NCBI GenBank assembly: GCA_964523885.1
Contig: CAZFYX010000038.1
Coordinates: 255-64,254, forward strand
From: an uncultured Burkholderiales bacterium
GTDB lineage: Bacteria; Pseudomonadota; Gammaproteobacteria; Burkholderiales; SHXO01
DNA: 64,000 nt
Direction of reading: 5' to 3'
In this document: positions 16,548 through 44,464 of the stretch, one piece after another
Position numbering within the stretch: the first letter of the stretch is position 1
Layout of the letters: each line of letters begins with the position of its first letter
The notes under the pieces: generated by a model
The model's input: only the letters and a program-made list of their open reading frames with translations
Told to the model about the DNA's origin: nothing
Databases searched by the model: none
Made by a program: the position numbers and the translations under genes

Positions 16548-16646
16548 GCAGCGGGCAGTGCAGCTCCCCCAAAGTGGCAGCGCGGCAGCATGCCTGCCCA
16601 CCTGCGCACGACTCATTCTCTCATCCTGCCACATCGGAGGCCCGCC

Positions 16647-19391
16647 ATGACGAAGGAATCCACCCGGTTGCAGGAAGCGCGCAACGAGAAGACCCCCTGG
16701 AAGAAGTGGGGACCGTACCTCAGCGAGCGCCAGTGGGGCACCGTGCGCGAGGACTACAGCGAGAACGGAGACGCCTGGAACTTCTTCACCCACGACCACG
16801 CCCGGTCGCGCGCGTACCGCTGGGGCGAGGACGGCATCGCCGGCATATCCGACGACAAGCAGCGGCTCTGCTTCGCCCTGGCGCTGTGGAACGGCAAGGA
16901 TCCGATTCTCAAGGAACGGCTGTTCGGGCTGACCAACAGCGAGGGCAATCATGGCGAGGACGTGAAGGAGTACTACTTCTACCTCGACAGCACGCCCACG
17001 CACTCGTACATGAAGTATCTCTACAAGTATCCCCAGGCTGCCTATCCCTACGGGGATCTGGTGGAAACCAACCGCCGGCGCAGCCGCAGCGAGATGGAGT
17101 ACGAGCTGCTGGACACCGGCGTCTTCGACGAGGATCGGTACTTCGACGTCTTCGTCGAGTACGCCAAGGCGGGTCCCGAGGACATCCTGGTGCGCATCAC
17201 CGCTGCCAACCGGGGGCCGGAGACCGCCGAGTTGCATCTGCTGCCTACGCTCTGGTTCCGCAACGACTGGGCCGACTGGATCGCCGAATCCAACCGGGCT
17301 CCGGGGAAGCCGGACCTCCGGCAGATCGCTGCAGCCCCCGGCATGAGCGCAGTCGCCGCCACCCATTCGCTGCTCGGTGAATTCAGCCTCTTCTGCGAAG
17401 GCGACGTGCCGCTGCTCTTCACCGACAACACCACCAACCACGAGCGCCTGTTCCCGGGACGGCAGCAGAACGAGAGCCGCTACGTCAAGGACGGCATCAA
17501 CGATTGCGTGGTACAGGGCCGGCAGGACGCGGTCAATCCGGAGCGGCAGGGTACCAAGGCGGCAGCGCACTACCGAGTGGAGATCGGCGCCGGCAAGGAA
17601 GCGGTCATTCGCCTGCGCCTCGTGCGCAAAGGCGCCGAGCAGAAGGGCGGGCCCTTCGGAAAGCAATTCGACGACGTCTTGGCCGACCGGCTGCGCGAGG
17701 CCGACGAGTTCTACCGGTCGGTCATCCCGCCGGCGGTGGGCCCCGATGCGGCCAACGTGATGCGCCAGGCGCTCGCCGGCATGCTGTGGAGCAAGCAGTT
17801 CTTTTTCTTCGACGGCGACAACTGGCTGGACGAGCACCACTCCAACCCGCTGCACTCCGGATTTCGCGCCGCGCGCAACTCCGAGTGGTTCCACATGCTC
17901 AACGAGGATGTGATCTCCATGCCGGACAAGTGGGAATACCCCTGGTACGCGGCCTGGGACCTGGCCTTCCATACGCTGCCGCTCTCGATCGTCGATCCCG
18001 ACTTCGCCAAGGATCAGATGAAGCTCATGCTCCAGGGCGTCTACCTGCACCCCAGCGGCCAGATGCCCGCGTACGAGTGGAACTTCAGCGACGTGAACCC
18101 GCCGGTGCACGCCTTCGCGACCCTGTTCCTGCACCGCACCGAGCAGGCCCTGCGCGGCCAGACCGACCTGGACTTCCTCAGGGCGACCTTCAACAAGCTG
18201 CTGATGAACTTCACCTGGTGGGTGAACCGCAAGGACCGCTTCGGCAAGAACGTCTTCGAGGGCGGCTTCCTCGGCCTCGACAACATCGGCGTCTTCGACC
18301 GCAGCGCCCCGCTGCCCACCGGCGGCCACCTCGAGCAGGCCGACGGCACGGCCTGGATGGCGCTCTTCACCCAGAACATGCTGGAGCTCGCGGTGGAGCT
18401 GGCCGCCCACGATCCGATCTACGAGGACATGGTGCTGAAGTTCGTGGAGCACTTCTACTACATCGCGGCCGGCATGAACCGCACCGGACAGGACGGGATG
18501 TGGGACGAGGAGGACGGGTTCTACTACGACCTGCTGCGGCGCCCCGATGGCAGCACCACGCGGCTGAAGGTGCGCTCGATGGTCGGGCTCCTGCCGCTGT
18601 GCGCGACCACGGTGATCGAGAAGTGGCAGCGGGAGCGCATCCCGCGCGTGATGACTCATATAACGGAGCGCCTGCGCCGGATACCGGAATTGCAGCGGAC
18701 CATCCACCCCACGGGGGCGGGACATCTCGGCGTCGCCGATCGCGGGGTGCTGGCCCTGGTGAACCCGGAGCGCTTGCGCAGGATCCTCAAGCGCATGCTC
18801 GACGAGAACGAATTCCTCAGCCCTCACGGCATCCGCGCGCTGTCGAAGTACCACGAGCAGCACCCCTACGTCCTCGATGTGAACGGCCAGGGGCACCGGG
18901 TGGACTATCTGCCGGCGGAGTCGAACACCGGCATGTTCGGCGGCAATTCCAACTGGCGCGGTCCGATCTGGATGCCGGTGAACGTGATGATCATCCGGGC
19001 GCTGCTCAACTTCTATCTCTACTACGGCGACAGCTTCAAGATCGAATGCCCGACCGGGTCGGGCAGGATCATGAACCTGTTCGAGGTGGCCAGGGAGATC
19101 TCGGACCGGCTCGCCAGCATCTTCATGCGCGACGACAACGGCCGGCGGCCGGTCTATGGCGGCACCGAGAAGTTCCAGAATGACCCCCACTGGCGCGACC
19201 TGATCCTGTTCTACGAGTACTTCCACGGGGACAACGGCGCGGGGCTGGGCGCGAGTCACCAGACGGGATGGACCGGCCTGGTGGCGAAGCTGATCCAGCT
19301 CTTCGGAATGCTCGATGCGAAGCGGGCGCTCGAGGCGGGGAAGGCCGCGGGTTTCGCGCAGCCCAGGCAGGCAGCGTCGATGCCGGGATAA
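16647..19391 (+). CDS. GH63-like / MGH1-like six-hairpin glycoside hydrolase (large bacterial glucosidase type), paralogue 1
   Basis: ATG at 16647 after GGAGG. Conserved blocks: [98 protein letters not shown]. Confidence 0.7.
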
Positions 19392-30025: not shown

Positions 30026-30222
30026 GCGGACGTAATGCAGCGGATGACGGTCCCCCATTTTAGCGGCGAGGCAGCATCCGTATGGTCCTTTCTCGCGGCC
30101 ATCTCCGGGGACGGGGCCCGAGCGCGCACGGCACGGCAGTTGCTTTTCACGTTTCGTCGAGATTCGACGGGAGGCTCCGAGCGGATCTGCACCATCGTCG
30201 CACGATGCCGTTACAGGAACAC

Positions 30223-31041
30223 ATGGGCACCGTCATCGCGTTTCGCCGTCCGCCACACTGGCTCACGCACTACGAGCGCGGCCAGGTGCGCTCGATCGCG
30301 GCCTGGAAGGCGGCCCGGCCCGGCGCGTACGAGAGCTTCGTGCGCGGCCTCACCCGCCCGCTCGCCGAGAACGTGCATACGCTCCTCAAGCCCTCCGTGG
30401 TGCGCGTGTTCGGCGATCTGCTGGAGTACCTCAACAGCCGCTTCGCGCGCGACCACGACCTGACCCGGGACGCGGGCATCCGCGGCGCGGGCATCCTCGA
30501 CATCGAAAGCCTGTCACAGAAGCCGCTGGAGGTGGCCGACGCTGTCGCGGACTACGTGATTGCCGATGCGCGCAGCCGCGCGGTGGCGGCGGGCGCGGCG
30601 AGCGGCCTGGCCACCCCGGTGGCCCTGGCGCTGGGCATCCCCGCGGCATTCAGCGCCGCCTTGCGCGCAAGCCATCGGGTGGCGCAGGCCTACGGGTGCT
30701 CCGGCGAAGCCCAGTCCGATCGCGCCATGGTGCTGCAGGTACTGGCCCTGTCCCTGGCAGTGACGCGTGCGGAACGCACCCGGGCGATGCAGGACTACCG
30801 GCGCCAGCTCGAGCACGCGTTCGTCAACTCCGCGGTCGACGAGATCATCCAGATCATCATCGAGCGCACCGTCGTGCGGCTGCAGCTGGGGAGCGCTGTG
30901 CCCGGCCTCGGCGTCCTGATCAGCGCCCGCGTCCACGGCCGCTTCGTCGAGCGCGCCGCCGTATGCGCCAAGCGCGTGTTCCAGGAACGTTGGCTGCGCA
31001 CGCGCGGCAAGGTGGACTGGATCGAGCCTCGCGCCGCCTAG
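30223..31041 (+). CDS. EcsC-family protein, paralogue 1
   Basis: 272 aa. It has the EcsC-like pattern (ADYVIADARSRAV...HRVAQAYG...VFQERWLRTRGKV) and is about half identical by eye to 32295..33134. Confidence 0.6.
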   Translation: MGTVIAFRRPPHWLTHYERGQVRSIAAWKAARPGAYESFVRGLTRPLAENVHTLLKPSVVRVFGDLLEYLNSRFARDHDLTRDAGIRGAGILDIESLSQKPLEVADAVADYVIADARSRAVAAGAASGLATPVALALGIPAAFSAALRASHRVAQAYGCSGEAQSDRAMVLQVLALSLAVTRAERTRAMQDYRRQLEHAFVNSAVDEIIQIIIERTVVRLQLGSAVPGLGVLISARVHGRFVERAAVCAKRVFQERWLRTRGKVDWIEPRAA

Positions 31042-31515: not shown

Positions 31516-32298
31516 GTGACCGCGGTGTTTCGCCAGCAGGCCCTGGCGCGCTGGCCCCGCTTCGCAGCGGCACTCGATGCACACTTCCCTGGCGCGATCG
31601 AGCTCACCGACTACGTGACCCGGTCCGCACGGGCGCTTGGGCGGCATGGTTTCGGCGACGCCAACACGCTGGGCGTCGTGGTCACCTGCCGTGACGAGAT
31701 CGCCACGCCCCTGCACACCCAGGTGATGCAGGCCTGGGGCAAGACCTTCGATGGCCGCAGCCTTGCCGGCTTCCTCTCCATGGGGGCGACCGGCATCGAC
31801 GCCGCGCTGTCGCATGCCCCCGTCGTCGACGGCCACGCGCGCTTCGCGCTCTATGCGATGCCGCACATCGCGATCTCCGAGGACGGCGTGATCGGCAACG
31901 TCTATCGCGAGAGCCTGCAGCAGGTCTCGCACGCGTGCGGCTCGCTGGCCGGCGTGCTGCACCAGCTGGAGGCGGGGCACGCGCGCCGCGTGATCGACCT
32001 GGACGACATCGAGCAGAGCCTGGTGAAGGGCCTGCTTCTGACCGCCCTGCGGCACGGCGAGGCGCGCGACCTCCTGGCGGTGACGCAGCTCGCTGGCCGG
32101 CTGATCACCGAGGATGTGGGACGCCTGGTCCTGGCCGCCGACCCGGCGCGGTACAGCTACGCGGTGTTCACCGGGGTGCTCGTGCACGGTCCTGGTGACG
32201 TTCACTGGGTCCACCCGCTGCATGCGTACGCGCGCGGTGTCGCCGTGGGCACCGGGACCGCCCACCTGACCGACCTGCACCTCGCGGTCGCGCGTTAG
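31516..32298 (+). CDS. Hypothetical 260-aa soluble protein with a Cys...His...Cys pattern (possible beta-CA-like/LCIB-like fold)
   Basis: GTG start 13 nt after the previous stop and GC3-rich codons. Candidate ligands: VVVTCRDEI, MPHIAISEDG, QVSHACGSL. Confidence 0.55.
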   Translation: MTAVFRQQALARWPRFAAALDAHFPGAIELTDYVTRSARALGRHGFGDANTLGVVVTCRDEIATPLHTQVMQAWGKTFDGRSLAGFLSMGATGIDAALSHAPVVDGHARFALYAMPHIAISEDGVIGNVYRESLQQVSHACGSLAGVLHQLEAGHARRVIDLDDIEQSLVKGLLLTALRHGEARDLLAVTQLAGRLITEDVGRLVLAADPARYSYAVFTGVLVHGPGDVHWVHPLHAYARGVAVGTGTAHLTDLHLAVAR

Positions 32299-33134
32299 CG
32301 CGCCCCGGGCGCGATCCACGCGACCTTGCCGCGGTCGCGCAGCCAGCGTTCCTGGAACACGTGCTTCGCTGCCACCGCCGCCTTCTCGACGAAGCGCGCG
32401 TGCAGGTAGGCGTTCATCAGTACGCCTGCGGCCGGCACTGCGGTGCCGAGCTGCACCCGGACGACGATGCGGCGCAGGAGCGCCGAGGCCGTATCCTCCA
32501 CCATCGAGCCCACCATGCCGTCCGCGAGCGCGACCTGGCAGTCGCGCAGTGCCCGTTCGTGGTCGCGGCGCGACACCGCCAGCGAGAGCGCCAGCGTCTG
32601 CAGCGCCAGGCGGCGGTCGACCGCCGTGTCGCCCGGGTAGCCATAGGCCTGCGCGACACGATGGATCGCGCGCAGCGCTGCGTCGAGCGCGACGGGCACG
32701 CCAACGGCGAGTGCGGTGGGCGAGGTGAATCCGGTCAGGGCGCCGGCCTTCACCGCGCGGCTGCGCGCATCGGCGATCACGTAGTCGGCCAGCACGTCGG
32801 CGTACTCGAGCGGGCGGCCGGCGAGGTCCTGCAGGGACGTGATGCCGGCCCGGCGCAGGCGCGCATCGCGGAGGATGCTGTCGCGCTCGGCGGTCCGCGC
32901 TGCCATGCGCTCGAGCACCGCATTCACCAGCCTGCCGATGGAGGGGCGCAGCGCCCGCTGCATGCCCCGTGTCACGGGGGCGGTCCAGCCCTGGAGGAAG
33001 CGCGCGAGCGCACCGGCCGGTGCGCCTTTCCACGCGGCGATCAGGCGCACCTGCTGGCGCTCGTAGCGCGACAGCGGCTGCGGCGGATGCACCCGTGAGA
33101 AGGGGAGGATGGTTCCTGGCGCGGTCGTTTCCAT
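32295..33134 (-). CDS. EcsC-family protein, paralogue 2 (last gene of the ATPase operon)
   Basis: 279 aa. ATG at 33132-33134. It shares the blocks ADYVIADARSRAV, HRVAQAYG and VFQERWLRDRGKV with paralogue 1. Its stop overlaps the stop of the convergent 31516..32298 gene. Confidence 0.6.
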   Translation of the reverse strand: METTAPGTILPFSRVHPPQPLSRYERQQVRLIAAWKGAPAGALARFLQGWTAPVTRGMQRALRPSIGRLVNAVLERMAARTAERDSILRDARLRRAGITSLQDLAGRPLEYADVLADYVIADARSRAVKAGALTGFTSPTALAVGVPVALDAALRAIHRVAQAYGYPGDTAVDRRLALQTLALSLAVSRRDHERALRDCQVALADGMVGSMVEDTASALLRRIVVRVQLGTAVPAAGVLMNAYLHARFVEKAAVAAKHVFQERWLRDRGKVAWIAPGAR

Positions 33135-33162
33135 GCACCACCTCGAAGCGTGCGGGTGCCCG

Positions 33163-33564
33163 CTACCCGTCGCGACGGCGATCGAGCGGCGGATAGCGCC
33201 GGTCGAGGTCGTCGAGTAGGCGGTTGATCTGGCGCAGCGCGGTGTGGATCGGGCGCGGCGCATGGCCGCGCTGCCACTTCTCCAGCTTGACGCGACCGGC
33301 CTTGGTCCGCGCGAGCAGGCCGATCAGGAGGATCGGCGCACCCAGGATGCCGGGGATGGCCAGCCCGATCAGGCCGGCCATGATAAGCGTGTTGCTGGTG
33401 CCGCGTGAGAGACGCTCCACGCGCTCGATGACGTACGCGTCCTCCTGCACTTCCAGCGCTTCGGCGGTGGCGGCGGTCACCGGCAGCAGTCGCGGATCGG
33501 GCCGGCCGAGGGGCGCGGGGAGCGGAACGACGCGGGTCTCGGTACTGTCTGGATTCTGGGTCAT
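33163..33564 (-). CDS. Small membrane protein (133 aa, central hydrophobic hairpin)
   Basis: ATG start 21 nt after the stop of the degenerate ATPase. The hydrophobic core is TLIMAGLIGLAIPGILGAPILLIGLLA. Confidence 0.55.
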   Translation of the reverse strand: MTQNPDSTETRVVPLPAPLGRPDPRLLPVTAATAEALEVQEDAYVIERVERLSRGTSNTLIMAGLIGLAIPGILGAPILLIGLLARTKAGRVKLEKWQRGHAPRPIHTALRQINRLLDDLDRRYPPLDRRRDG

Positions 33565-33585: not shown

Positions 33586-35967
33586 TCAGTCGGCAAGCGT
33601 GCTGGCGCGGTGTCGACCGGGATCGGGGACGGGGAGGGTTGCGGCGCCGGGCTGTACCCGCAGCGCTTGCAGGGCGCGCTTGGCGCGCTTGTATACGGCG
33701 AGCGTGCCGGCGTTGCTTGCCAGCACCACGGCAAGGCCGTTGAAGCCGAGCACGAACACGCCGGCGACGCAGAAGAGGTTGTAGCCGAGCACGGTGCGGC
33801 GCGTGCTCTTCAGGCGGTCGGCGTGCTCGCGTGCGCTGTGCAGGATCCCGGGCAGCGGGCGCAGGCGGCGGCCGAGGATCACGAAGTCGGCCGGGTTGCG
33901 CTCGACCGGCAGTGCGCCATCCAGTGCGATGGAGACGGCAGCGCTGCCGGCCAGCGGCAGCCCGTCGCAGTCGCCGACCACCGCGGCGTTGACGCCACGG
34001 CGGCGCAACCCCTCCATGAAGCGCACCTTGGTCGGTGCGGTCATGTCGCCGCTCGCGAGCCGGATGCCCAGTGCGTCGGCCAGCTTGCGGGTCTGCGCCT
34101 CGGGACGCTGGGAGATCAGGAACACCTCGACGCCGGCGTTGCGCAAGGCCGCGATCGTGGCCCTGGCTTCCGGCGGACCGCTGCGCCGGAAGCCGACGCG
34201 CGCGACTTCGACGCCGTCGATCTCGACGCGCAGCGCCGGCGGGGTGCGCTCCATCCCGGCAGGCCGGCCAAGCAGCGTGATGCGCTGGCCGTTGTTCTCC
34301 ACGGTGACCGCTTCCGCCTCCAGGCTCACCAGCGGCATCCGCGCTGGCTGCAGGCCCTGCGCGAGGCAGGCCTTCACCAGGGCCTCGGCGCGCTCGTCGC
34401 CGAGGTACAGCGCGGCCGAGGCGATGTGGGGGAGCAGGACGTGGGTGTCGAGCGCGCCGCGCGGCTTGATCCCTGCGACCTCCACCGCGGGCTCGTGCAG
34501 GTCGGCGTGATCGTCGATCACGACCATCGAGATCGCGCCGAGCGCCTGCAGCGCGGTGGGGTTGCGCACCAGCACGCCGGACTGCAGCAGTGTCCCGGCC
34601 TGATGCATCGCGCCCAGCGAAGCAGCCAGGGCCAGCCCGTTGGCATAGTCCGGGCGCAGGAGTGCGGAGGCGGTGGCCAGGTCACCCACCAGCAGCCCTA
34701 CGCCGGCGGTGGCCATGGTCGGCGCCACCGCGCCGTTGGCGAAGCGCTCGGCGCCTTCGTGCAGCGCGAGCCTGCGCGCGCTCGGCCGCGTCGCGTGCTC
34801 GAATGCGCGGCCGACCTGTGCACGCCATGCGTCGTCGCCGGTGCGCAGCACCTCGACCGTGATCGCCCCTTCGTACACCAGGCTGCCCGCCACGACGTCC
34901 GCGCCGGCCACCTTGCGGATCCAGGGGTTGGGCGCGGTGAGCGGCGGCTCGCGCACCAGTGCGCTGCCGTCCACCACCTTGCCATCGCCGGGCACCAGCT
35001 CGCCGGCGGCGACCCGTACGCGCGCACCGACCAGCGCTTCCCCGGTCACTGCAACCTCGCGCTCGGTATCCTCCAGATGCAAGGGCATCACCTGGTCCAA
35101 CAGGCCGTGGCCCTCGAGCGTGAGATCCTCGCGGTAGCGCTGCTCCCAGTAGCGGAAGCACCACAGCATGAGCGCCGCCGACAGGAACTGGCCGGTGCCG
35201 AGCGTCGCCACGATGATCGCCGTGTACAACAGCGGCAAGCCGGTCCGGCCCTGGGTCAGCTGGCGGCCGCCGGCACGCAGGATGTCGAGGTTGGCGACCA
35301 CCAGCAGACCGGCCGACAGCGGCGTGAGCGGCGCCAGCACGAGCTCGGCGGCGGCCAGGCCGACCGAGACGTTGGCGAGGCGGAAGTCCACCTGCGCCAT
35401 CGGCGGTGCGACCGCCAGGGCGATGGCGCGCTCCGCGATCCGCAGCACGCACTCGGCATCGAGGCTCGCGGGATCGAAGCGGATATCCATCCCGCGCACC
35501 AGCTTGCTGGCATGGGCACTCGCGATTCCGGGCACCGCCCGCAGGGCGGTCTGCGCCCGGCCCGTCGCGGCCTTGTCGTGCCCGAGGGCGCGGTGCCCGA
35601 TGAACAGATGCCCGGGCGCGACGTGCAGGCGTTCGGCGGTCGAGACCAGGGGCCCGTGCCGGTACAGCGTGACGACTTTGGCGCCGCTCCATGCCGGCAT
35701 GCGCTCACGGGGCAACCCGGTGCCGCGACCCTCGATCAGCCCGGCCAGCCCCTCCGTGAACGCTGCGCGCGCGCTCGCGCGCACGGCATAGCGGACGTGT
35801 GCAGCGCCCCGGTCGAGGTCGAGGCGGACGCTGCTCACCTCCGGACAGGCCAGCAGCCGGCGGGCAAGAGCGTCGGCGAGCGCGGGTCCCTGCGCGGAGC
35901 ACAGGCGGGGGTCGCGGATGCGCATGGCGTCGCGCTCGATGGCGACCTGGGGATGTTGGCCCTGCAT
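33586..35967 (-). CDS. Full-length P-type-ATPase paralogue with all catalytic motifs degenerate (predicted non-catalytic pseudo-ATPase)
   Basis: It is collinear with the 37546..40188 ATPase, but TGES is replaced by TAPN (34927-34938), DKTGT by DDHAD (34501-34515), SGD by SQR and GDGINDS by GDCDGLP. The ORF is intact over 793 codons, and 19 of 20 codons checked around DDHAD end in G/C. Confidence 0.7.
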   Translation of the reverse strand: MQGQHPQVAIERDAMRIRDPRLCSAQGPALADALARRLLACPEVSSVRLDLDRGAAHVRYAVRASARAAFTEGLAGLIEGRGTGLPRERMPAWSGAKVVTLYRHGPLVSTAERLHVAPGHLFIGHRALGHDKAATGRAQTALRAVPGIASAHASKLVRGMDIRFDPASLDAECVLRIAERAIALAVAPPMAQVDFRLANVSVGLAAAELVLAPLTPLSAGLLVVANLDILRAGGRQLTQGRTGLPLLYTAIIVATLGTGQFLSAALMLWCFRYWEQRYREDLTLEGHGLLDQVMPLHLEDTEREVAVTGEALVGARVRVAAGELVPGDGKVVDGSALVREPPLTAPNPWIRKVAGADVVAGSLVYEGAITVEVLRTGDDAWRAQVGRAFEHATRPSARRLALHEGAERFANGAVAPTMATAGVGLLVGDLATASALLRPDYANGLALAASLGAMHQAGTLLQSGVLVRNPTALQALGAISMVVIDDHADLHEPAVEVAGIKPRGALDTHVLLPHIASAALYLGDERAEALVKACLAQGLQPARMPLVSLEAEAVTVENNGQRITLLGRPAGMERTPPALRVEIDGVEVARVGFRRSGPPEARATIAALRNAGVEVFLISQRPEAQTRKLADALGIRLASGDMTAPTKVRFMEGLRRRGVNAAVVGDCDGLPLAGSAAVSIALDGALPVERNPADFVILGRRLRPLPGILHSAREHADRLKSTRRTVLGYNLFCVAGVFVLGFNGLAVVLASNAGTLAVYKRAKRALQALRVQPGAATLPVPDPGRHRASTLAD

Positions 35968-35994
35968 GGGGAGCGAGTGGTCGGGTGCGCGCGC

Positions 35995-36465
35995 TCAGCG
36001 CGCGGTGCGCTGGATCTCGATCGCCTCGCGGGCGCGCCCGGAGAGGCGGCCGGCGAGGGACTTGGCGTTCCGGTGCATGGCGATGAGGTTGAGGAATTCG
36101 CGCATGGCCGCTTCGGCTTCCTCGCGATCCTTCACCAGACCCAGGTGCAGGCGGAACCCATGCACCTGGTCGCGCTGCTTCTGCGCCGCGGCGGTCAGGT
36201 CGTGGACGATGACCACCGGCTCCTTCGTGGCGAGCACGCGGTCCTGCGCGGCCATCGCCTGCGACTGCTCGACGCTCAGCAGGAACAGCGGGTCGCCGGC
36301 CTGCAGGGCGTTGAGCTCGCCCAGGTGGGCATGCAGCACTTCGCTGGGGAGCGGCCTGGTGCGGGTGTCGACGACGTAGATGCGCAGCCGCGGCTGGGCC
36401 TTCGCCGGGTCGGACCAGCTCTCATTCGCGGCAACGAGCGTGTCCCGAGCGGCGTTGTCGTTCAC
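35995..36465 (-). CDS. Soluble protein of unrecognised family (156 aa), paralogue of the C-terminal domain of 36715..37485
   Basis: GTG start with GGAG 6 nt upstream. Shared blocks: PRLRIYVVDT / PRFKIFVVDT, VHDL, HGFRLHLGL / HGFRIHLGL, EF...I..HR. Confidence 0.6.
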   Translation of the reverse strand: MNDNAARDTLVAANESWSDPAKAQPRLRIYVVDTRTRPLPSEVLHAHLGELNALQAGDPLFLLSVEQSQAMAAQDRVLATKEPVVIVHDLTAAAQKQRDQVHGFRLHLGLVKDREEAEAAMREFLNLIAMHRNAKSLAGRLSGRAREAIEIQRTAR

Positions 36466-36483
36466 CCGGGACTCCGCATGCGG

Positions 36484-36681
36484 TCAGGATGCAGCCACGT
36501 ACGGCTGCAGCAGGCCTTCGGCGGCCATGTCCTCCAGCCGGGCGACCAGCGGATACTCCTCGCGGCCGAGCACCTGGTAGAGGTCGCGCAGCCGGCGGAT
36601 GCGCCGATAAATCTCGAAGGCCGTATAGGCGACCACGAGGGCGCCGAACACCATCGTCAGGATATCAGCCGTACGATCCAT
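36484..36681 (-). CDS. Small single-pass membrane protein (65 aa)
   Basis: ATG with GGAGGA 8 nt upstream. N-terminal TM segment (ILTMVFGALVVAYTAF) followed by a basic helix (EIYRRIRRLRDLY). It is tightly packed between the two paralogous genes (33-nt and 18-nt gaps). Confidence 0.55.
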   Translation of the reverse strand: MDRTADILTMVFGALVVAYTAFEIYRRIRRLRDLYQVLGREEYPLVARLEDMAAEGLLQPYVAAS

Positions 36682-36714
36682 GCCATGTCCTCCGGGTCCG
36701 CGCGTCCTGCCGGC

Positions 36715-37485
36715 TCAAATCTTCGCCAACAGGGCGATTGTATCCCTTAATCCCGCGCGCCTCAGCCGCTTCTGGACGTCGCGCTCGAGGGTGTTGGAGT
36801 CGCGGTGCAGGGTGATGAAGCGGGTGAATTCCTGCAGCATGTCCAGGGCGTGGGCGGGCGTGTTGGCCAGGCCGAGGTGGATGCGGAACCCGTGGAACTG
36901 CGGCCTGCCGGGACGGCTCTTCACCGCGAGGTCGTGGACACAGATCAACGGGTCCTTGCCGATCAGGGTGCGGTCCAGCTGGATGAAGTCGATAGACTGC
37001 GCGGGGCTGAGCACGAAGATCTGGTCCTCCGGCGCCAGCTTGGCGATCAGGCCGAAGTTGTCGCGCACGACCTGGCTGGCGGGGGAATGCCAGCCGGTGT
37101 CGACCACGAAGATCTTGAAGCGTGGCCCGGTCCTTCTGGCGGCGGCAGGCGCAGCGGCCACTGCAGGCACCGATGCCGCGGGGACCTGGTGCAAGGGTGA
37201 CACGTTCCCGGTCTGGGTCATGGGATGCTCCGGCGATAGCTCATGCGCAGGCGCAGCGGGCTCGTGCCCGTCCTGCGCTGCGTGCCCGGCGACCGCGACG
37301 TCGGCGGACGTGCCCGCCAACACGTCGAATTCCGTTCCGGCGGGGTGCGACACCTCGACGACATACGCCTCGACGGCGTCGAGGTGCGGACCGTCGAATG
37401 CAATCACGCTCTTCTGCGGGCTCCGTCGCCGTCCGTTGGCCAATGGCGGCGCATCCCTGCGCTTGCCGCGGCGCTTCTCGCTCAT
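36715..37485 (-). CDS. Protein of unrecognised family (256 aa): disordered basic/Ala-Pro-rich N-terminus plus a C-terminal domain paralogous to 35995..36465
   Basis: ATG at 37483-37485 with GGAGGAG 8 nt upstream. The C-terminal ~135 aa align by eye to the 156-aa protein at roughly one third to 40 percent identity. Confidence 0.6.
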   Translation of the reverse strand: MSEKRRGKRRDAPPLANGRRRSPQKSVIAFDGPHLDAVEAYVVEVSHPAGTEFDVLAGTSADVAVAGHAAQDGHEPAAPAHELSPEHPMTQTGNVSPLHQVPAASVPAVAAAPAAARRTGPRFKIFVVDTGWHSPASQVVRDNFGLIAKLAPEDQIFVLSPAQSIDFIQLDRTLIGKDPLICVHDLAVKSRPGRPQFHGFRIHLGLANTPAHALDMLQEFTRFITLHRDSNTLERDVQKRLRRAGLRDTIALLAKI

Positions 37486-37545
37486 CACCACATCTCCTCC
37501 ACGCGCAGCGGCACGGGACGCAGTCTCGCTACCTGCCGACCGCGA

Positions 37546-40188
37546 TCACGCCGCGGCTGCCACATCCGCCGTCCCGAAGCCAGCCGGATCGGCCTTGCGC
37601 TCCGCCCTCGCCGGGGCGGGCAGGGCCGGCGTCACCTGCGGTCGGCCCGGCACGAGCTCGTTGACCTGCGCGTTCAGGCCCGCGCTGCGCAGCTCCAGCT
37701 CCAGCCGGTGACGGCGCGCCGCCTCGTGCTGCGCGACCTTGCGCATCGGCCACACGCCGTTGGCGAGCGCCGCCAGGGCGGCGACATTGTTGGCGAGCAC
37801 CGAGGCGCCCACGCCGAAGCCCAGGGTGAACACGCCGGCCATGCACAGGGCGTTGGGCAGGATGATCATTCCCCAGCTGCGACGGATGTTGTGCTCGAGC
37901 GCCGTGGCGATGTCGCGCAGCTCGCACAGCTTGCCCAGGCCCTGCTCCATGAACACGATGTGCGCGGTGTCGGTGGCAATCGAGGTCGCGCCGCGCAGCG
38001 AGATCGCCACGTTGGCTTTCTTCAGCGCGATCGAGTCGTTGATGCCGTCGCCGACGAAGCAGACCTTGCGGCCTTCGGCCTGCAGCCTGGCGACGTATTC
38101 CGCCTTGTCCGCCGGCAGCACCTGAGCGAAGTAGCGGTCCATGCCGAGCTGCTCGGCGAGCTTGCGGGTGGGCGCCTCGTGGTCGCCGGAGATAATGGCG
38201 ATGTGCTTGATGCCGCGCTTGCGCAGACCGGCGATGATCTCGACCACCTCCGGGCGCACCGAGGCGCGCAGCTCCAGCGCGCCGCCGAGTGCACCGTCGA
38301 CCGCGACCATGACCATGGTGTGGCCCTCGCGGTGCGCCTCGTCCAGCGCGGCGGCGACGTCCGGCGGAACCGCGATGCCTTCCATGTCCATGAAGCGCGG
38401 GCTGCCCACCTTGATCGTGTGGCCGCCCACCCCCACGGTGATGCCGTACCCGACGCTGTACTGCGTCTCGTCGGTCGCCTGCAGCCTGAGGCCGGCTTCC
38501 TCGGCCTTGTGCAGGATCGCGAGCGCGATGGGATGGTGGAACTTGGCCTCGGCGGCGGCGGCGAAGCCCAGGATCTGCATGCCGTCGAAACCGTTGCAGG
38601 CGACGATGCGACCTACCTCGGGGCGCTCGCGGGTGAGGGTGCCGGTCTTGTCGAACAGGATCGTGTCCACGCTGTGCATGAGCTCCAGCGCGCGGCCGTC
38701 CTTCACCAGGATGCCGCGCTGCGCGCACAGGGCCAGCGAGGACAGCATCGCCAGCGGCGCGGCCATGCGGATGCCGGTGCCCAGGTCGCAGTTGAGGATG
38801 GCGACCGCACCGTTGGGGCCCATGGTGCCCATCGCCAGCGCACCGATCGCCAGGGTGGGGATGACCGCCTTGTCGGCCAGCTGCTCGCCCTTCTGCTGGG
38901 TGGCCATCTTGTAGCCGGCGGTGTCGTTCAGGATCTGCGCGATGCGCGCCGAGGCGGTGTCGCTGCCGGCCTTCTCGACCGACACGTAGACCTTGCCGGC
39001 GACCAGGATGGTGGAGGCGAAGACACGCTCGCCCACGCCCTTCTCCGCCGGCGTGGATTCGCCCGTGAGCGCGTGCTGGTCGACCATGGCCATGCCTTCG
39101 ACCACCACGCCGTCCACCGGCACCATGTCGCCGGTGTGTACCGCCACCACGTCGCCGGCATTGAGCTTGTCCAGGCTGACCTGGGTCTCCACGCCGTCGC
39201 GCACCAGCCACACGAAGCGCGGCTGCTTGCCGAATGCGCCGAGCAGCATGCGCTTGGAGTTGTCCTCGGTGCGCTTGACCAGCATGCGCCCGAACGACAG
39301 GCACCAGGCCAGCACCGCACCGGGGAAAATCTGCAGGGTGGACAGGCATCCGATCACCACGATCGAATCGAGCACGTCCACGCCGAGCCGACGCTCCTTG
39401 AACAACACGTCGTACGCGTTGCGGAAGCTGGGGATTGCGGTGTAGGCGAACAGTGCGGCCGACACCGGCAGCAGCGGTGGCGCTGCGAACTGCGCGAACG
39501 CGGCGAGCGGCAGCGAGCCGGTGCAGATCGCGAGGTGCAGGTCGAGCTTGTCGAGCTGGGTCGGATGCTCCGCGCTGGCCAGCGCGGCGTCGAGCACCTC
39601 CATGAGCTGCGCGACGTCGAGGATGCGCGGATCGTAGTCGATCTGCACCGCGCAGCTGATCGAGCTGCTCTTGAAGCGGTCCACGCCGTGCAGGGCCATC
39701 AGCTCGCGGTCGATGGCGTCGCACAGCGCCTGCTTGCGGTAGAGGACCGGATTCTTCAGGTGGACCGTGCCCAGCCGCCGGCGGGTGATCTGCCAGCCGG
39801 TCACCACGTGCCCGTAGCGGTGATAGTGCGCCACGCCGTGACGGTCGCGCACGCTGGACACCGGGGCGATCTGCGGCGGGCGCAACTCGACGGGCTGCCC
39901 CTCGCGAGTCCCGGCTTCGGCCGGCAGCAGCGGATCGGCATGCGTCATGACCGCGGCCAGGCGACCGAGCACATCGGCCAGCAGGCTGCGGGAGGGGTCG
40001 AAGCGCAACTGCGCCGCGGGGCGCCTGCCCTGGCCGATGGTTGCGCCCGACAAGTCGGTGGCGTGGAACGCGCGCTCCAGGAATCGCCGGCACAGGTCGC
40101 CCGCCGGGTCGGAGAACAGCGTCGCGCTGTGGATGTCGATGACGCCGGCGCGTGGGAAGGACAGCGCGACGTCGATGGTCGGTTCCAT
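37546..40188 (-). CDS. P-type ATPase, P1B-like architecture but lacking a CPx-type transmembrane motif and CxxC metal-binding domains
   Basis: TGES (39055-39066), DKTGT (38638-38652, verified codon by codon), FHHPIA, SGD and GDGINDS are all present. The membrane helix before the P-domain reads ILNCDLGTGIRMAAP (NCD at 38785-38793). The ATG at 40188 is preferred; the TTG at 40212 is an alternative. Confidence 0.8.
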   Translation of the reverse strand: MEPTIDVALSFPRAGVIDIHSATLFSDPAGDLCRRFLERAFHATDLSGATIGQGRRPAAQLRFDPSRSLLADVLGRLAAVMTHADPLLPAEAGTREGQPVELRPPQIAPVSSVRDRHGVAHYHRYGHVVTGWQITRRRLGTVHLKNPVLYRKQALCDAIDRELMALHGVDRFKSSSISCAVQIDYDPRILDVAQLMEVLDAALASAEHPTQLDKLDLHLAICTGSLPLAAFAQFAAPPLLPVSAALFAYTAIPSFRNAYDVLFKERRLGVDVLDSIVVIGCLSTLQIFPGAVLAWCLSFGRMLVKRTEDNSKRMLLGAFGKQPRFVWLVRDGVETQVSLDKLNAGDVVAVHTGDMVPVDGVVVEGMAMVDQHALTGESTPAEKGVGERVFASTILVAGKVYVSVEKAGSDTASARIAQILNDTAGYKMATQQKGEQLADKAVIPTLAIGALAMGTMGPNGAVAILNCDLGTGIRMAAPLAMLSSLALCAQRGILVKDGRALELMHSVDTILFDKTGTLTRERPEVGRIVACNGFDGMQILGFAAAAEAKFHHPIALAILHKAEEAGLRLQATDETQYSVGYGITVGVGGHTIKVGSPRFMDMEGIAVPPDVAAALDEAHREGHTMVMVAVDGALGGALELRASVRPEVVEIIAGLRKRGIKHIAIISGDHEAPTRKLAEQLGMDRYFAQVLPADKAEYVARLQAEGRKVCFVGDGINDSIALKKANVAISLRGATSIATDTAHIVFMEQGLGKLCELRDIATALEHNIRRSWGMIILPNALCMAGVFTLGFGVGASVLANNVAALAALANGVWPMRKVAQHEAARRHRLELELRSAGLNAQVNELVPGRPQVTPALPAPARAERKADPAGFGTADVAAAA

Positions 40189-40285
40189 GGGACTCAAGTC
40201 GTACCTCGGCAAGCGTTCTCGTCACGCACCGGCGGTGCGTTGCCCGGCCCGCGGACGCTCGCCCGCGGGCTGGCGCACTGCAGGG

Positions 40286-40645
40286 TCAGTGGCCGGACGC
40301 GTCCTCGACCGGCGCCGCGTACTCGCCGATGCCCTTGGCCTCGTTCACCGCGTCGATTGCCGCGCTCGCACCGTCCTTCAGGCCGCGCACGAAGGGGTTC
40401 TCCTGCGGGACGGACTTGGCGATGAAGACCGCGGCATAGACCAGTCCGTAGGAGATCATGTAGGAGCCGGTGTAGGCGGCCCGCGAAGCGGCGTTGGCGA
40501 TCTCGGGCCCGGCGTTGCCGAGCTTGGCGCGCAGGCTGGCTGCGTCGTTGGTGGCCGCACTGGCCGCCTTGCGCATGGCGTCGGCCACGGCGGACAGGGG
40601 ATCGGACCCGGCGGCTTCGGGGGCGGCGGCTTCGGCGCTCGACAT
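40286..40645 (-). CDS. Small Ala-rich membrane-anchored protein (119 aa), first gene of the ATPase operon
   Basis: ATG at 40643-40645 with a strong AAGGAGAAA SD. One hydrophobic segment (YMISYGLVYAAVFIA) is flanked by Ala-rich helices. Confidence 0.6.
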   Translation of the reverse strand: MSSAEAAAPEAAGSDPLSAVADAMRKAASAATNDAASLRAKLGNAGPEIANAASRAAYTGSYMISYGLVYAAVFIAKSVPQENPFVRGLKDGASAAIDAVNEAKGIGEYAAPVEDASGH

Positions 40646-40896
40646 GATGCTTTCTCCTTGATTCGTTGGGCTGACCCCATGCGGCCCGGGTGCCGGGCTC
40701 GCGTGGCGCATGGTAAGCATTACCTGATCGCCTACCCTACACCCCCAATACGGCTCAGGTCATGGGCAAATCTCGACAGGTTGGTGCATGCCACCGTCCA
40801 AGGCCGGGATTCGATCCGCTGCCATGACATTAGGCTGAGTGCCGCGGACGCATTTGATCCAGCGCAGATGTTCATGCCGGAGCCTGCGCGTGCACG

Positions 40897-41592
40897 TCAG
40901 ACCAGGTTCGACAGGGCATTGACCACCAGGCCCAGGATCAGGACCACGAAGAAGAACGACAGGACGGCGTGGACCAGGGTCAGCCGCCGCATGGTCCAGC
41001 CGGTGACGGACACGTCCGAGGTCTGGTAGCACATGGCGATGGTGAACGAGTAGTACATGAAATCCCAGTAGTCCGGGGTGTCCCGCTCCGGGAAGTCGAG
41101 TCCGCGGCGGTATTCCCGCTTGCCCGCCAGGACATGGTCGTCGTAGTACAGCCGCATGTAGTACAGCCCGACGAACAGGTTGAACAGCACCCAGGACAGC
41201 GCCACCGCCAGCATCGACATCACCTGGTGCAGGTTGCTCACCCACGCGGGCCAGCCCTTTACCGGCTCGAGCATGAAGATGACGCCGACGATGCTGGTGG
41301 CCACGACCACCGACGCCGTGATGACCGCGCGCAGCCCGCTCGGCTCCCCCTCGCTGGCCATGACCGCGCATTCCTCGGGCTCCACGGTGGTGAAGCGGAA
41401 GGCGCTCAGCGCGAGGTAGGCCAGGGTTCCGAGGTTGAAGGCCAGCACCAGGCGGGTGCTGACGGGGAGGGCTGCCGCGGCGAAGTACGCGACGACCGTC
41501 AGCACCAGCGCAAGGGCCAGGCTCGCAAGCGGGGATGCGAAGGCGGCACCCGGCGCGGGGTGCGACATCTTGTCGCGGTCAGCCTTGTTCAT
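40897..41592 (-). CDS. DUF1345-like integral membrane protein
   Basis: Multi-pass hydrophobic profile with the characteristic DYWDFMYYSFTIAMCYQTSDV block. ATG at 41590-41592. Confidence 0.6.
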   Translation of the reverse strand: MNKADRDKMSHPAPGAAFASPLASLALALVLTVVAYFAAAALPVSTRLVLAFNLGTLAYLALSAFRFTTVEPEECAVMASEGEPSGLRAVITASVVVATSIVGVIFMLEPVKGWPAWVSNLHQVMSMLAVALSWVLFNLFVGLYYMRLYYDDHVLAGKREYRRGLDFPERDTPDYWDFMYYSFTIAMCYQTSDVSVTGWTMRRLTLVHAVLSFFFVVLILGLVVNALSNLV

Positions 41593-41794
41593 CGTGTCCT
41601 TGTCCCGGCCGTCGGTGCCGACGCCGGGTCTGCGCAACCGTTGCGTGCCCTGCCTGGAAAACCGCACCGCACACTATGCCGTCGTGCTGCGGAGGAGTCA
41701 TTGGCACTTCTTGACAGCTCGCGCACCGCGCGGTGCAGTGCGGGAACGAGAACCAGAGCCAACCGGGCGCCGCCATGCCACAATCCCGCCCCGC

Positions 41795-44464
41795 ATGGAT
41801 ACCCGACCCTCAGGCAGGACCCACGACACCGCGGAGCATGCGCGCGTAGCGCTCGCGCCCCCCGGCCGCCCCGGCGACTGGAAGCTGCTCGGCCCCTATG
41901 TGAGCGAGCGCGCCTGGGGCACGGTGCGCGAGGATTACAGCGCGGACGGCAAGGCCTGGGAATACTTCCCGTACGAGCACGGGCGCTCGCGCGCGTATCG
42001 CTGGAACGAGGACGGACTGGCCGGCATCTGCGACATCGGGCAGCGCATGTGCTTCGCGCTCTCGTTCTGGAACGGGCGCGATCCGTTCCTCAAGGAGCGC
42101 ATCTTCGGCCTGGCCGGTCCGGAGGGTAACCATGGCGAGGACGCCAAGGAGTACTGGTGGTACGTGGACGCCACGCCGACCTCGTCGTGGCTGCGCTGGC
42201 GCTATCACTACCCGCAGGCGGAGTTCCCCTACGCGCAACTGCGCGAGGAGGCGAAGCGGCGGGGCAAGGCGGACCGCGAGTTCGAGCTCGCGGACACTGG
42301 CGTGTTCGACGGCGGGCGCTACTGGGAGATCAGCGCCGATTACGCCAAGGCCACGCCGACCGACCTGTGCCTGCGCCTGACCGTCCGCAATGCCGGCCCC
42401 GAGCAGGCCAGGCTGCACGTCCTGCCCACTCTGTGGTTCCGCAACCGGTGGTCCTGGATCGAGGATGGGCGCCGTCCGCAGGTACGGGCGGTGGAAGGTG
42501 CAGCCGATGTGGCCTGCGCCGTGGCCGAGGAGCCGCTGCTCGGTAGCTGGCAGCTGGCGGCCGGCCCGGGCCCGGACGGCAAGGCGCCGCAACTGCTGTT
42601 CTGCGAGAACGAGACCAACACGGCGCGGCTGTTCGGCGCCGGGGCCGGCGGTCCCGCTTACCCGAAGGACGGAGTCAACGACCACGTCGTATCAGGCGCC
42701 GCCTCGGTGAACCCGGCGCAGTCCGGGACGAAGATGGCGTGCTGGTACGTGCTCGACGTGCCGGCCGGCGCGTCGGTGGAAGTGCGGCTGCGCCTGGTGC
42801 GTGCCCCCCAGGCTGCACCGCCCGACCTCGCGGCCGGTTTCCAGCAGGTCATGCAGCAGCGCGCGCGCGAGGCGGACGAGTACTATGGCGCACTGCTGCC
42901 GGACGGCACGGGCGAGGACGAGGCGCGGGTCATGCGCCAGGCCTTCGCCGGCATGGTGTGGAGCCAGCAGTTCTATCACTACGATCTGGAACGCTGGCTG
43001 GCCGGGGATCCGACCCAGCCCAAGCCGCCGCAGCAGCGCGGTGCTGGCCGCAACGCGAACTGGCGTCACCTGGACAACCACGATGTCATCGCGATGCCGG
43101 ACAAGTGGGAGTACCCGTGGTATGCCGCCTGGGATCTCGCCTTCCACAGCGTGGTGCTGGCACACATCGACCCCGCCGCCGCGAAGCACCAGCTGCTGCT
43201 GCTGTTGCGCGAGTGGTACATGCATCCCAACGGCCAGCTGCCAGCCTACGAGTGGAACTTCAGCGACGTGAACCCGCCGGTGCAGGCGTGGGCCGCGCTG
43301 GCGGTGTTCCGCATCGACGGCGGCGAGGATTTCGACTTTCTCGCCCGCGCCTTCCACAAGCTGCTGCTCAATTTCACCTGGTGGGTCAATCGCAAGGACG
43401 CGCGCGGCGACAACGTGTTCCAGGGTGGCTTCCTGGGGCTGGACAACATCGGCCCGTTCGACCGCTCTGCCATGCTGCCCGACGGCGAGGTGCTGGAGCA
43501 GTCCGACGGCACGGCCTGGATGGCGAAGTTCTGCCTGAACATGCTGGAGATGGCGCTGCGCCTGGCCAACCGCGACCGCAGCTACGAGGACCTAACGCTG
43601 AAGTTCTTCGAGCACTTCGCCTACATCGCCGCGGCGATGGACGAGCTGTGGGACGAGGAGGACGGCTTCTTCTACGACCGCCTGCGCCGGTCGGACGGCA
43701 GCACGATCGCAGTGCGCGCGCGGTCGATGGTCGGGCTGCTGCCGGTGTTCGCAGGCGTGAGGCTGGATGCTGCGCTGTGGGAGAAGCTGCACGACTTCCG
43801 CGCCCGCGCGCGCTGGTTCATCGACAACAAGCCTCACCTGGCGGGGTTCCTGGGCTACTTCCCGCACGACGGCCGGCCCGAGCTGATATCGGTCTGCAGC
43901 GAGGCGCGCCTGCGACGGGTGCTCGCGCGCATGCTGGACGAGTCGGAGTTCCTGTCGCCGTTCGGCCTGCGCTCGCTCTCCCGCTACCACCGCGAGCATC
44001 CGCTGGTGATCCAGATCGACGGCGGCACGGCGAAGCTGGACTACGAGCCGGCCGAGTCCGCCACCGGGCTGTTCGGCGGCAACTCCAACTGGCGCGGGCC
44101 GATCTGGTTCCCGCTCAACTTCGTGGCGCTCGAGTCGCTGCGCCACCTGCACGAGTGCCTGGGCGACGCGTTCACGGTCGAGTTGCCGACAGGGTCGGGC
44201 AGGCAGGCGCACCTCGGGCAGGTGGCGGACGAGTTGGAGCGCCGCCTGCTCGCGCTGTTCCTGCTCGACGGTCGGCAGCGTCGTCCGGCGCATGGCGAGA
44301 CGCAGCTGTTCCAGGCCGATCCGGCCTGGCGCGATCACATCCTGTTCTACGAGTACTTCCACGGCGACACCGGCGAAGGCCTGGGCGCCTCGCACCAGAC
44401 CGGCTGGACCGCGCTGGCCGCAGCAATGATTGCCAACCGGACGATGCGCAAGCGCGGCACATGA
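41795..44464 (+). CDS. GH63-like / MGH1-like six-hairpin glycoside hydrolase, paralogue 2
   Basis: It carries the same conserved blocks as 16647..19391 ([89 protein letters not shown]). Confidence 0.7.
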   Translation: MDTRPSGRTHDTAEHARVALAPPGRPGDWKLLGPYVSERAWGTVREDYSADGKAWEYFPYEHGRSRAYRWNEDGLAGICDIGQRMCFALSFWNGRDPFLKERIFGLAGPEGNHGEDAKEYWWYVDATPTSSWLRWRYHYPQAEFPYAQLREEAKRRGKADREFELADTGVFDGGRYWEISADYAKATPTDLCLRLTVRNAGPEQARLHVLPTLWFRNRWSWIEDGRRPQVRAVEGAADVACAVAEEPLLGSWQLAAGPGPDGKAPQLLFCENETNTARLFGAGAGGPAYPKDGVNDHVVSGAASVNPAQSGTKMACWYVLDVPAGASVEVRLRLVRAPQAAPPDLAAGFQQVMQQRAREADEYYGALLPDGTGEDEARVMRQAFAGMVWSQQFYHYDLERWLAGDPTQPKPPQQRGAGRNANWRHLDNHDVIAMPDKWEYPWYAAWDLAFHSVVLAHIDPAAAKHQLLLLLREWYMHPNGQLPAYEWNFSDVNPPVQAWAALAVFRIDGGEDFDFLARAFHKLLLNFTWWVNRKDARGDNVFQGGFLGLDNIGPFDRSAMLPDGEVLEQSDGTAWMAKFCLNMLEMALRLANRDRSYEDLTLKFFEHFAYIAAAMDELWDEEDGFFYDRLRRSDGSTIAVRARSMVGLLPVFAGVRLDAALWEKLHDFRARARWFIDNKPHLAGFLGYFPHDGRPELISVCSEARLRRVLARMLDESEFLSPFGLRSLSRYHREHPLVIQIDGGTAKLDYEPAESATGLFGGNSNWRGPIWFPLNFVALESLRHLHECLGDAFTVELPTGSGRQAHLGQVADELERRLLALFLLDGRQRRPAHGETQLFQADPAWRDHILFYEYFHGDTGEGLGASHQTGWTALAAAMIANRTMRKRGT

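Follow-up and report, generated by a model that had tools for sequence, protein, structure and literature searches.

A conserved P1B-type pseudo-ATPase encoded beside a catalytic sister pump in an uncultured Burkholderiales bacterium

The window analyzed here, a stretch of 64,000 nucleotides from contig CAZFYX010000038.1 of an uncultured Burkholderiales bacterium (assembly GCA_964523885.1), encodes two P-type ATPase paralogues on its minus strand. The downstream one, in which the catalytic motifs of the superfamily have been replaced (hereafter the pseudo-ATPase), is the subject of this analysis. Its open reading frame (ORF), 33586-35967, runs without interruption over 793 codons and lies in a row of genes in the order DUF1345, g144, catalytic ATPase, sm258, tm65, sm156, pseudo-ATPase, tm133, and EcsC (Table 1). 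It is separated from its upstream neighbor by 27 nt and from its downstream neighbor by 21 nt, gaps that are short and operon-like as an initial annotation of this DNA had stated. That annotation had described an intact P-type ATPase paralogue with every catalytic signature replaced, and had argued that it was retained as a scaffold, regulatory, or transport subunit rather than decaying.

By both homology and fold, the pseudo-ATPase falls within the P-type ATPase superfamily, being of the P1B kind. It aligns with the catalytic neighbor (37546-40212) at 26% identity over 690 columns (BLASTP, E 2e-38) and matches the Pfam family E1-E2_ATPase (PF00122) at 5.3e-13. The match to PF00702 (7e-4) falls under the cut-off of that family, and the match to TIGR01525 (1.7e-35, 123 bits) does not reach the curated cut-off of 346.25 bits, which the catalytic neighbor exceeds with 404.6 bits. 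An AlphaFold2 model built from an alignment of 77 sequences (predicted local distance difference test, pLDDT, 90.8; predicted template modeling score, pTM, 0.88) contains two N-terminal ferredoxin-like domains, eight transmembrane (TM) helices, and confidently folded A, P, and N domains, with the fourth membrane helix (M4) broken at residues 438-442. Foldseek matches of the model include ATP7B, ZntA, CopA, and KdpB (E 4e-29 to 1e-20). In the model, the entire P1B fold is kept.

The catalytic motifs within this fold have been exchanged as the initial annotation reported. The A domain has LTAPNPW where the neighbor has LTGESTP, and the phosphorylation loop reads IDDHADLH in place of FDKTGTLT. 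SQR stands opposite SGD, (A)PTK opposite PADK, and the hinge GDCDGLP (GDCDGL) opposite GDGINDS (GDGIND), while the N-domain FHHP of the neighbor pairs with LGDE, so that the HP dipeptide is lost. Translation of the corresponding codons gives exactly TAPN, DDHAD, and GDC. There is no DKTGT anywhere else in the protein. The pseudo-ATPase therefore has none of the motifs by which catalytic competence is judged (DKTGT, TGE(S), and GDGxND), nor the His-Pro of P1B pumps. The claim that every signature is replaced is slightly overstated: D485 (aligned with the phosphorylated Asp), K647 (the Lys of PADK), and G665-D666 of the hinge persist. Similarity in the membrane and C-terminal segments is also as first described (GVFVLGFNG versus GVFTLGFGV in the two paralogues). 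The P1B-1 to P1B-7 subgroups are defined by Cys-containing tripeptides in TM4, namely CPC, SPC, PCP, SCA, and CSC (PMC13460109). Neither paralogue has such a motif; the segment reads NCDLGTG in the neighbor and RPDYANG in the pseudo-ATPase, giving aligned tripeptides of L-G-T and Y-A-N, respectively, and the Asp one residue upstream is nearly invariant.

Table 1 Features of the pseudo-ATPase gene and of the genes around it (positions in the window)
Feature	Position	Strand	Description
Pseudo-P1B-type ATPase	33586..35967	-	793 aa; a pair of ferredoxin-like domains (HMA_2 type) at the N terminus, eight predicted TM helices, and folded A/P/N domains
TAPN	34927..34938	-	Replaces the TGES dephosphorylation loop of the A domain; alignment and translation
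DDHAD	34501..34515	-	Replaces DKTGT; Asp at the phosphorylation position kept, K/T/G/T lost; alignment and translation
GDC	33967..33975	-	Remnant of the GDGIND hinge and Mg site; alignment and translation
TM4 motif R438-P-D440-Y	34645..34656	-	At the M4 helix break; translation, family alignment, and model
TM5-TM6 segment	33712..33780	-	Contains N730, C733, and N752, predicted ion-site residues; translation and family alignment
Catalytic sister ATPase	37546..40212	-	888 aa, or possibly starting at the ATG at 40188; TGES, DKTGT, HP, SGD, and GDGIND intact; 67-77% identity to homologues from other phyla
sm258	36715..37491	-	Conserved C-terminal domain of ~135 aa; constant operon member; start codon uncertain
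tm65	36484..36681	-	Conserved 65-aa single-TM micro-protein
sm156	35995..36465	-	Paralogue of the sm258 domain (36% identity)
tm133	33163..33564	-	Small membrane protein with conserved C-terminal RxLDDLxRRYP; directly downstream of the pseudo-ATPase in nearly all loci
g144	40286..40720	-	Small Ala-rich protein with hydrophobic hairpin; conserved directly upstream of the catalytic ATPase
EcsC-family protein	32295..33263	-	True start probably ATG at 33134; recurrent accessory neighbor
DUF1345 membrane protein	40897..41667	-	Accessory neighbor, present at the Stellaceae locus too
LCIB-type carbonic anhydrase	31516..32298	+	Accessory neighbor

The GC content of the window is 65-73%, so long open frames alone mean little here. 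At 73% GC a decaying pseudogene might stay open only because stop codons are rare, and long spurious ORFs do occur in this region. A 1046-aa antisense ORF (33610-36750, plus strand) covers the pseudo-ATPase and its upstream neighbors; with GC1/2/3 of 0.89/0.50/0.77 and no homology, it was rejected as a real gene and is an Arg/Gly/Ala-rich high-GC artefact. Fragmented orthologues (loci L002, L011, L045, and L052) might also be taken as signs of decay. The composition of the pseudo-ATPase gene is nevertheless of coding type: its GC1/2/3 values of 0.77/0.52/0.90 match those of the surrounding genes, which agrees with the G/C-ending codon bias first noted. Ratios of nonsynonymous to synonymous substitution (dN/dS, omega), estimated by the Nei-Gojobori method (NG86) for 40 orthologue pairs at 78-97% identity, have a median of 0.31 (range 0.17-0.44), and the upper ends of the bootstrap 95% intervals for the five pairs tested do not exceed 0.48. 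Broken down by domain, omega lies between 0.16 and 0.18 in the three TM blocks and between 0.29 and 0.34 in the N-terminal, A, P, and N domains, indicating that the whole protein is constrained, with the membrane part held about twice as strongly. The catalytic partner has a median dN/dS of 0.14 in five paired comparisons, against an omega of ~0.35 for the pseudo-ATPase.

The orthologous ORF is intact in the short-read assemblies wherever the contig allows this to be judged, and the frame is preserved across Proteobacteria and Planctomycetota at 28-54% identity. Broken orthologues come from long-read metagenome-assembled genomes (MAGs) and from 2 or 3 of 33 metagenome loci, and in the long-read MAGs of loci L007 and L010 the catalytic gene is fragmented alongside the pseudo-ATPase gene. 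Frameshifts or stops, neutral dN/dS, and lost coding composition, the marks of a pseudogene, are all absent from the gene in the window. The pseudo-ATPase is a real gene under purifying selection, and decay is refuted by the coding, selection, conservation, and fold data together. Each refutation check named in the initial annotation (orthologue integrity, dN/dS, and a DKTGT elsewhere in the protein) came out on the side of a retained non-catalytic function, as did the structure prediction and the partial conservation of the degenerate motifs. In a comparison of loci L017 and L025, the catalytic genes differ by a dS of 0.076 and the adjacent pseudo-ATPase genes by a dS of 0.21, a mismatch that hints at recombination inside the operon.

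To survey the family, 1.8 billion cluster representatives were searched exhaustively with a profile of the pseudo-ATPase, yielding at least 150 matches, each of at least 298 bits. A word-indexed protein search recovered only four orthologues and badly understated the family, and a scan of genome contigs found only 10 loci, limited by its two peptide patterns. Among the 150 matches listed, approximately 135 lack the catalytic motifs, seven are of the catalytic type (N[CSA]D[FLY]GTG, DKTGT, [ST]HP, SGD, and GDG[IV]ND), and six are partly degenerate. The pseudo-ATPase clade comprises more than 100 clusters at 50% identity. Its members come from the Methylococcales, from Planctomycetota such as the Isosphaeraceae, from a Stellaceae MAG of the Alphaproteobacteria, and from numerous soil metagenome contigs. 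Among the protein collections searched, the closest relative of the window's pseudo-ATPase reaches 42% identity at most, and near-identical matches to its operon partners (P0189, 98% to the catalytic ATPase; P0309, 100% to sm258) lie on short ENA contigs, suggesting that the host lineage is barely sampled.

Residues were counted over the 104 pseudo-ATPase family members of at least 650 aa. The columns aligned with DKTGT hold Asp (74) or Glu (12), then Asp (67), His (33), Pro (53), Ala, and Leu (74), and in some members the position of the phosphorylated Asp is taken by G, A, V, Q, I, or L. The TGE motif has all but lost its Glu across the family, leaving an A-domain loop of the form x-G-x-x-G with no conserved Glu. 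The HP dipeptide is replaced by L-G-D(76)-x-R(82), and the hinge has become G(88)-D(58)-C(39), with the N-D pair, and hence the second Asp of GDGxND, lost. The N domain is the least conserved part of the protein and is deleted altogether in several members of 670-750 aa (P0093, P0097, P0110, P0112, P0119-P0122, and P0127), one of which (P0093, locus L014, 8001-10190) still sits within a complete operon. As judged from the family alignment, the residues for ATP binding, autophosphorylation, and dephosphorylation are lost across the pseudo-ATPase family. The degenerate motifs are themselves conserved in part: new motifs of the form D-D-H-P-A-L, L-G-D-x-R, and V-G-D-C can be recognized, and their individual positions vary.

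These new motifs raise the alternative that the protein is still an enzyme, in which D485 together with the D-D-H and GDC motifs would support a phosphatase or phosphotransferase reaction, or metal-dependent chemistry with Asp, His, and Cys ligands at a P-domain site that has been remodeled. In real pumps the Mg/phosphate site is formed by two loops, and D-D-H-P and G-D-C lie at these loops. The folds of the P and N domains are confident in the model, and, besides the Asp kept in the window and in 74 of the 104 members, a Ser or Thr at HAD motif II is retained in 84 and a Lys or Arg at motif III in 70. Conservation of the individual residues is only 56% to 71%, however, compared with 94% to 98% for the membrane site described below; the aliphatic and other residues found at the Asp position, the members without an N domain, the disappearance of the TGE loop, and the restriction of His to 33 and Cys to 39 of the 104 sequences also argue against this alternative. 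We consider a remaining enzymatic role quite improbable.

Conservation within the family peaks in the TM segments. The M4 signature is [R84/H18]-[P73/Q19]-D102-[Y83/W18], in which the Asp corresponds to D440, and this motif is positioned where canonical P1B pumps have the CPC ion site. Helix M5 carries P86-N102-x-x-C82 (N730 and C733 in the window), and M6 an Asn in 98 of the 104 members (N752). The catalytic sister clade shares this M4 Asp, the M5 Asn-x-x-Cys, and the M6 Asn; two positions before the M4 Asp it has an Asn, where 102 of the 104 pseudo-ATPases have Arg or His. A near-invariant polar set of Asp (M4), Asn (M5), and Asn (M6) thus lines the predicted intramembrane ion site. Drift at the catalytic positions combined with near invariance of the membrane site suggests that the phosphorylation cycle was given up and that ion binding was kept. 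The Arg or His located two residues ahead of the M4 Asp, a feature specific to the pseudo-ATPase clade, may serve as a built-in counter-ion.

A neighbor-joining tree (636 columns, Poisson distances, 100 bootstraps) was constructed with other P1B pumps for comparison. The pseudo-ATPase family is monophyletic with 100% bootstrap support, the catalytic and partly degenerate sequences group together with 96%, and both groups are joined with 100%, indicating that one ancient duplication gave rise to the pseudo and catalytic lineages. All six partly degenerate sequences (P0152, P0155, P0177, and P0185-P0187; locus L019) nest within the catalytic clade, and they differ in the motifs that survive. For example, P0152 and P0177 retain TGE and part of the GDGxxD hinge, while DKTGT has become DQ[AS]AV. 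Their position inside the catalytic clade suggests independent, younger losses of the phosphorylation loop.

The pseudo-ATPase gene is closely tied to that of its catalytic sister. The core order is g144, catalytic ATPase, sm, tm65 (with sm and tm65 sometimes repeated), pseudo-ATPase, and tm133, and among the 26 further loci with upstream sequence that were scored for pairing, it is found together with the upstream catalytic gene in 15 of 15 metagenome loci, in genome loci L004-L012 and L014, and in one JGI contig. A search begun from the catalytic protein returned the pair again in two of two loci (Methylomagnum ishizawai and the Stellaceae MAG). In the family, the pseudo-ATPase gene follows its catalytic sister two to three small genes downstream. 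Of the loci with upstream sequence, only L002 departs from this pattern of a conserved dead paralogue that is encoded and inherited together with the live one. Across hosts, the catalytic proteins share 67% to 81% identity and the pseudo-ATPases 28% to 54%, and the pairwise identities of the two are correlated (r = 0.73).

The small genes of the operon are equally recurrent. In many loci the stop codon of tm65 overlaps the start of the pseudo-ATPase gene by 4 nt, suggesting translational coupling. The sm domain has weak thioredoxin-like structural matches (E 0.01-0.1) and lacks CxxC, and no Pfam family was found for g144 (40286-40720) at E <= 0.001. An sm-tm65-sm-tm65 tandem is present in Methylomagnum (L016) and at loci L020-L022, L027, L028, and L037, whereas the second tm65 of this tandem has been lost from the window. 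Gene callers easily miss the tm65 micro-ORF, which has homologues in nearly every locus.

The conserved pairing with a catalytic sister and the near-invariant residues of the membrane site suggest a partner subunit whose ion site is live, and we consider it probable, with moderate confidence, that the pseudo-ATPase is a non-catalytic subunit of the neighboring pump that bears a predicted ion site. Such a partner may have any of the three roles first proposed (scaffold, regulatory, or transport subunit). According to this model, the catalytic and pseudo lineages would both descend from an unusual, cysteine-free P1B-like pump that was duplicated once, long ago, and would since have been inherited together in one operon. 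The pseudo-ATPase, the catalytic ATPase, and the small proteins would assemble into one membrane complex, in which the pseudo-ATPase would serve as a second membrane domain for ion binding or as a half that regulates or stabilizes. The live pump might then drive the ion domain of the pseudo-ATPase, or the pseudo-ATPase might gate the live pump. Analogies for such an arrangement would be ABC transporter heterodimers in which one site is dead and the pairing of KdpB with KdpA.

The pump probably transports a hard cation (Ca2+, Mn2+, Mg2+, or Na+/H+) and not Cu or Zn, because the predicted site is built on Asp and Asn without Cys and because Ca2+/cation antiporters and carbonic anhydrases recur nearby. 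The neighbors make Ca2+ the leading guess, which we offer with low confidence. In the sources, the catalytic partner is labeled only as a Cu2+-exporting or heavy metal translocating ATPase; the annotation "heavy metal translocating P-type ATPase" is attached to it in Methylomagnum ishizawai, Methylococcus mesophilus, Methyloterricola oryzae, and others.

Several observations weigh against the partner-subunit reading. The adjacency and co-inheritance of the two genes would equally fit proteins that act in series or a regulator and its target. By both identity and omega, the pseudo-ATPase has outpaced its partner in evolution by a factor of two to three, a rate in excess of that expected for a tightly packed obligate subunit, and the omega values come from a method (NG86) that disregards codon bias. 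At L011, L045, and L052, the broken pseudo-ATPase copies lie beside a catalytic gene that has no internal break (at L045 and L052 it is cut by the contig end only), which implies that the pseudo-ATPase gene can be lost. The fragmented gene at L002 has no catalytic partner within 10 kb, and at L015 there is no partner upstream and the contig ends just after the gene. The persistence of D485, S619, K647, and D666 would be compatible with a residual HAD-type reaction in the window protein. The identity of the ion, finally, is drawn from residue chemistry and gene neighbors only.

Some of these points would suit a protein that acts on its own without pumping, either as a passive cation pathway of the channel or uniporter type or as an ion sensor (or "transceptor") in the membrane. 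The operon would then be shared with the pump only through common ion homeostasis, and the cytoplasmic domains would transmit or gate rather than hydrolyze. The faster evolution relative to the partner, the two loci at which no partner is seen in the sequence at hand (L002 and L015), the near invariance of ion-site residues next to drifting catalytic ones, and the constraint on cytoplasmic domains (omega ~0.3) that carry motifs of their own, such as LGDxR, are all consistent with this alternative. It accounts less well for the near-universal adjacency, the gene order fixed across phyla, and the correlated divergence of the two proteins, and the Arg or His beside the M4 Asp suggests a site that is neutralized rather than open. 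In addition, P-type ATPase folds are not known to conduct ions without a phosphorylation cycle. An autonomous role therefore seems unlikely to us, although less so than an enzymatic one.

The partner-subunit reading can be extended to a more specific proposal, which we regard as tentative and as having less than an even chance of being correct. The live and dead pumps would form an obligate heteromer in which the ion domain of the pseudo-ATPase is driven or gated by the phosphorylation cycle of its sister, joined by the 65-aa peptide, the thioredoxin-like protein, and two small membrane proteins, and the whole would represent an undescribed multi-subunit cation pump. Both clades together would form a new, cysteine-free branch of the P1B ATPases, whose Asp/Asn ion site would be suited to a hard cation. 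In view of the antiporters and carbonic anhydrases nearby, that cation may be Ca2+, and the operon may function in Ca2+/carbonate or pH handling, in hosts that would include methanotrophs, Planctomycetes, and soil Proteobacteria.

Beyond the core operon, the accessory genes that recur near it in 47 loci are Na_Ca_ex (8), EcsC (6), DUF454 (4), carbonic anhydrase (4), and OprB (3); to this tally the window contributes one more gene each for carbonic anhydrase and OprB and two more for EcsC. Past its first EcsC gene, the window continues with the LCIB-type carbonic anhydrase, a second EcsC gene, and an OprB porin. The EcsC paralogues (30082-31041, plus strand, and 32295-33263, minus strand) flank the carbonic anhydrase, whose LCIB type resembles that of the algal carbon-concentrating mechanism. 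LCIB-type or beta carbonic anhydrases also adjoin the operon in Methylomagnum, in the Stellaceae MAG, and at loci L024 and L025. At locus L018 (312-8729), a divergent catalytic-type relative (P0148, TM4 motif NADYGTG) lies in a cluster that also encodes an FtsZ/tubulin-like protein, a standalone protein with an HMA_2 domain, and a transporter of the SDF family and that contains several small ORFs, which may be a different, possibly organelle-like context. Elsewhere, the window contains two GH63/MGH1-like glycoside hydrolase paralogues of ~1000 aa each, located 22 kb apart (16284-19391 and 41435-44464, both on the plus strand), as well as Omp85, OprB, AsmA/YhdP, and RND efflux genes, which mark the host as a high-GC Gram-negative bacterium.

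Among known systems, the P1B pumps CopA, ZntA, and ATP7B are homologous to the pseudo-ATPase over its full length, with the same eight TM helices, A/P/N domains, and N-terminal ferredoxin-like domains, and M4 is unwound at the ion-site position in the pseudo-ATPase as well. The pseudo-ATPase differs from them in lacking conserved DKTGT, TGES, HP, and GDGxND motifs and the Cys tripeptide of TM4. The adjacent catalytic clade is the sister of the pseudo-ATPase clade and shares its N-terminal double domain, but it keeps all of the catalytic motifs, whereas the pseudo-ATPase clade has R/H-P/Q before the M4 Asp. KdpFABC is a P-type ATPase that works only in complex with a second, ion-binding membrane subunit and the tiny single-TM protein KdpF. 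KdpF and KdpA would be the analogues of tm65 and the pseudo-pump in the complex proposed here; unlike the pseudo-ATPase, KdpA is derived from a channel and is not a dead pump, and nothing homologous to KdpA, KdpC, or KdpF was found.

Chan et al. in 2010 reportedly described the N-terminal part of FUPA24 as a dead type I ATPase. The functional motifs of FUPA24 (TC 3.A.3.24; mycobacterial CtpH/CtpI) are confined to the C-terminal region (PMC3573892). A non-functional P-type-ATPase-like part would thus be kept beside a functional one, a precedent for the present case. The FUPA24 halves are fused in one polypeptide and are of different topological types, the live one being of type II. The window, in contrast, has separate ORFs, both of type I/P1B topology, with three small genes between them and a dead copy whose ion site is conserved. 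Heterodimeric ABC exporters have one degenerate ATP site, and the prozyme of AdoMetDC is a pseudoenzyme activator (PMC5201418). In both, a dead paralogue is retained as the obligate partner of a live one; their folds are unrelated to that of the pseudo-ATPase, and the likeness is conceptual only.

In the PacL-Ctp effluxosomes of mycobacteria, small membrane proteins encoded upstream of P1B pumps bind the N-terminal domain of the pump and are needed for pump stability and clustering (PMC13460109). The small Ala-rich membrane protein g144 occupies the same position, but it has no DUF1490 or DUF6110 match in Pfam, and PacL systems include no pseudo-ATPase. Assignment of the locus to a P1B-6/ferrosome or PacL-type system was rejected on these grounds and on the lack of SCA or CPC in TM4. 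None of the precedents compared here pairs a separate, conserved dead pump with a live one. A full-text literature search returned no description of a dead P-type ATPase partner, of this pseudo-ATPase family, or of this operon, and the clade is apparently a large, widespread, and undescribed pseudoenzyme family.

P-type ATPases are among the best-studied membrane enzymes. To our knowledge, they are treated as self-sufficient catalytic subunits, with small accessory proteins, or the channel-like subunit of Kdp, as their only helpers. If dead pumps form a large and ancient clade that selection has maintained, retaining the ion pocket and accompanying a live sister from phylum to phylum, the superfamily would gain a new principle, that of the pseudoenzyme subunit. 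It would also flag a whole cysteine-free branch of P1B ATPases that currently carries Cu2+-exporting or heavy metal translocating labels. The system is present in cultured methanotrophs (Methylomagnum ishizawai and Methylococcus mesophilus) and would therefore be testable, and the family offers natural experiments in its N-domain deletions and in the younger, independent losses of DKTGT within the catalytic clade.

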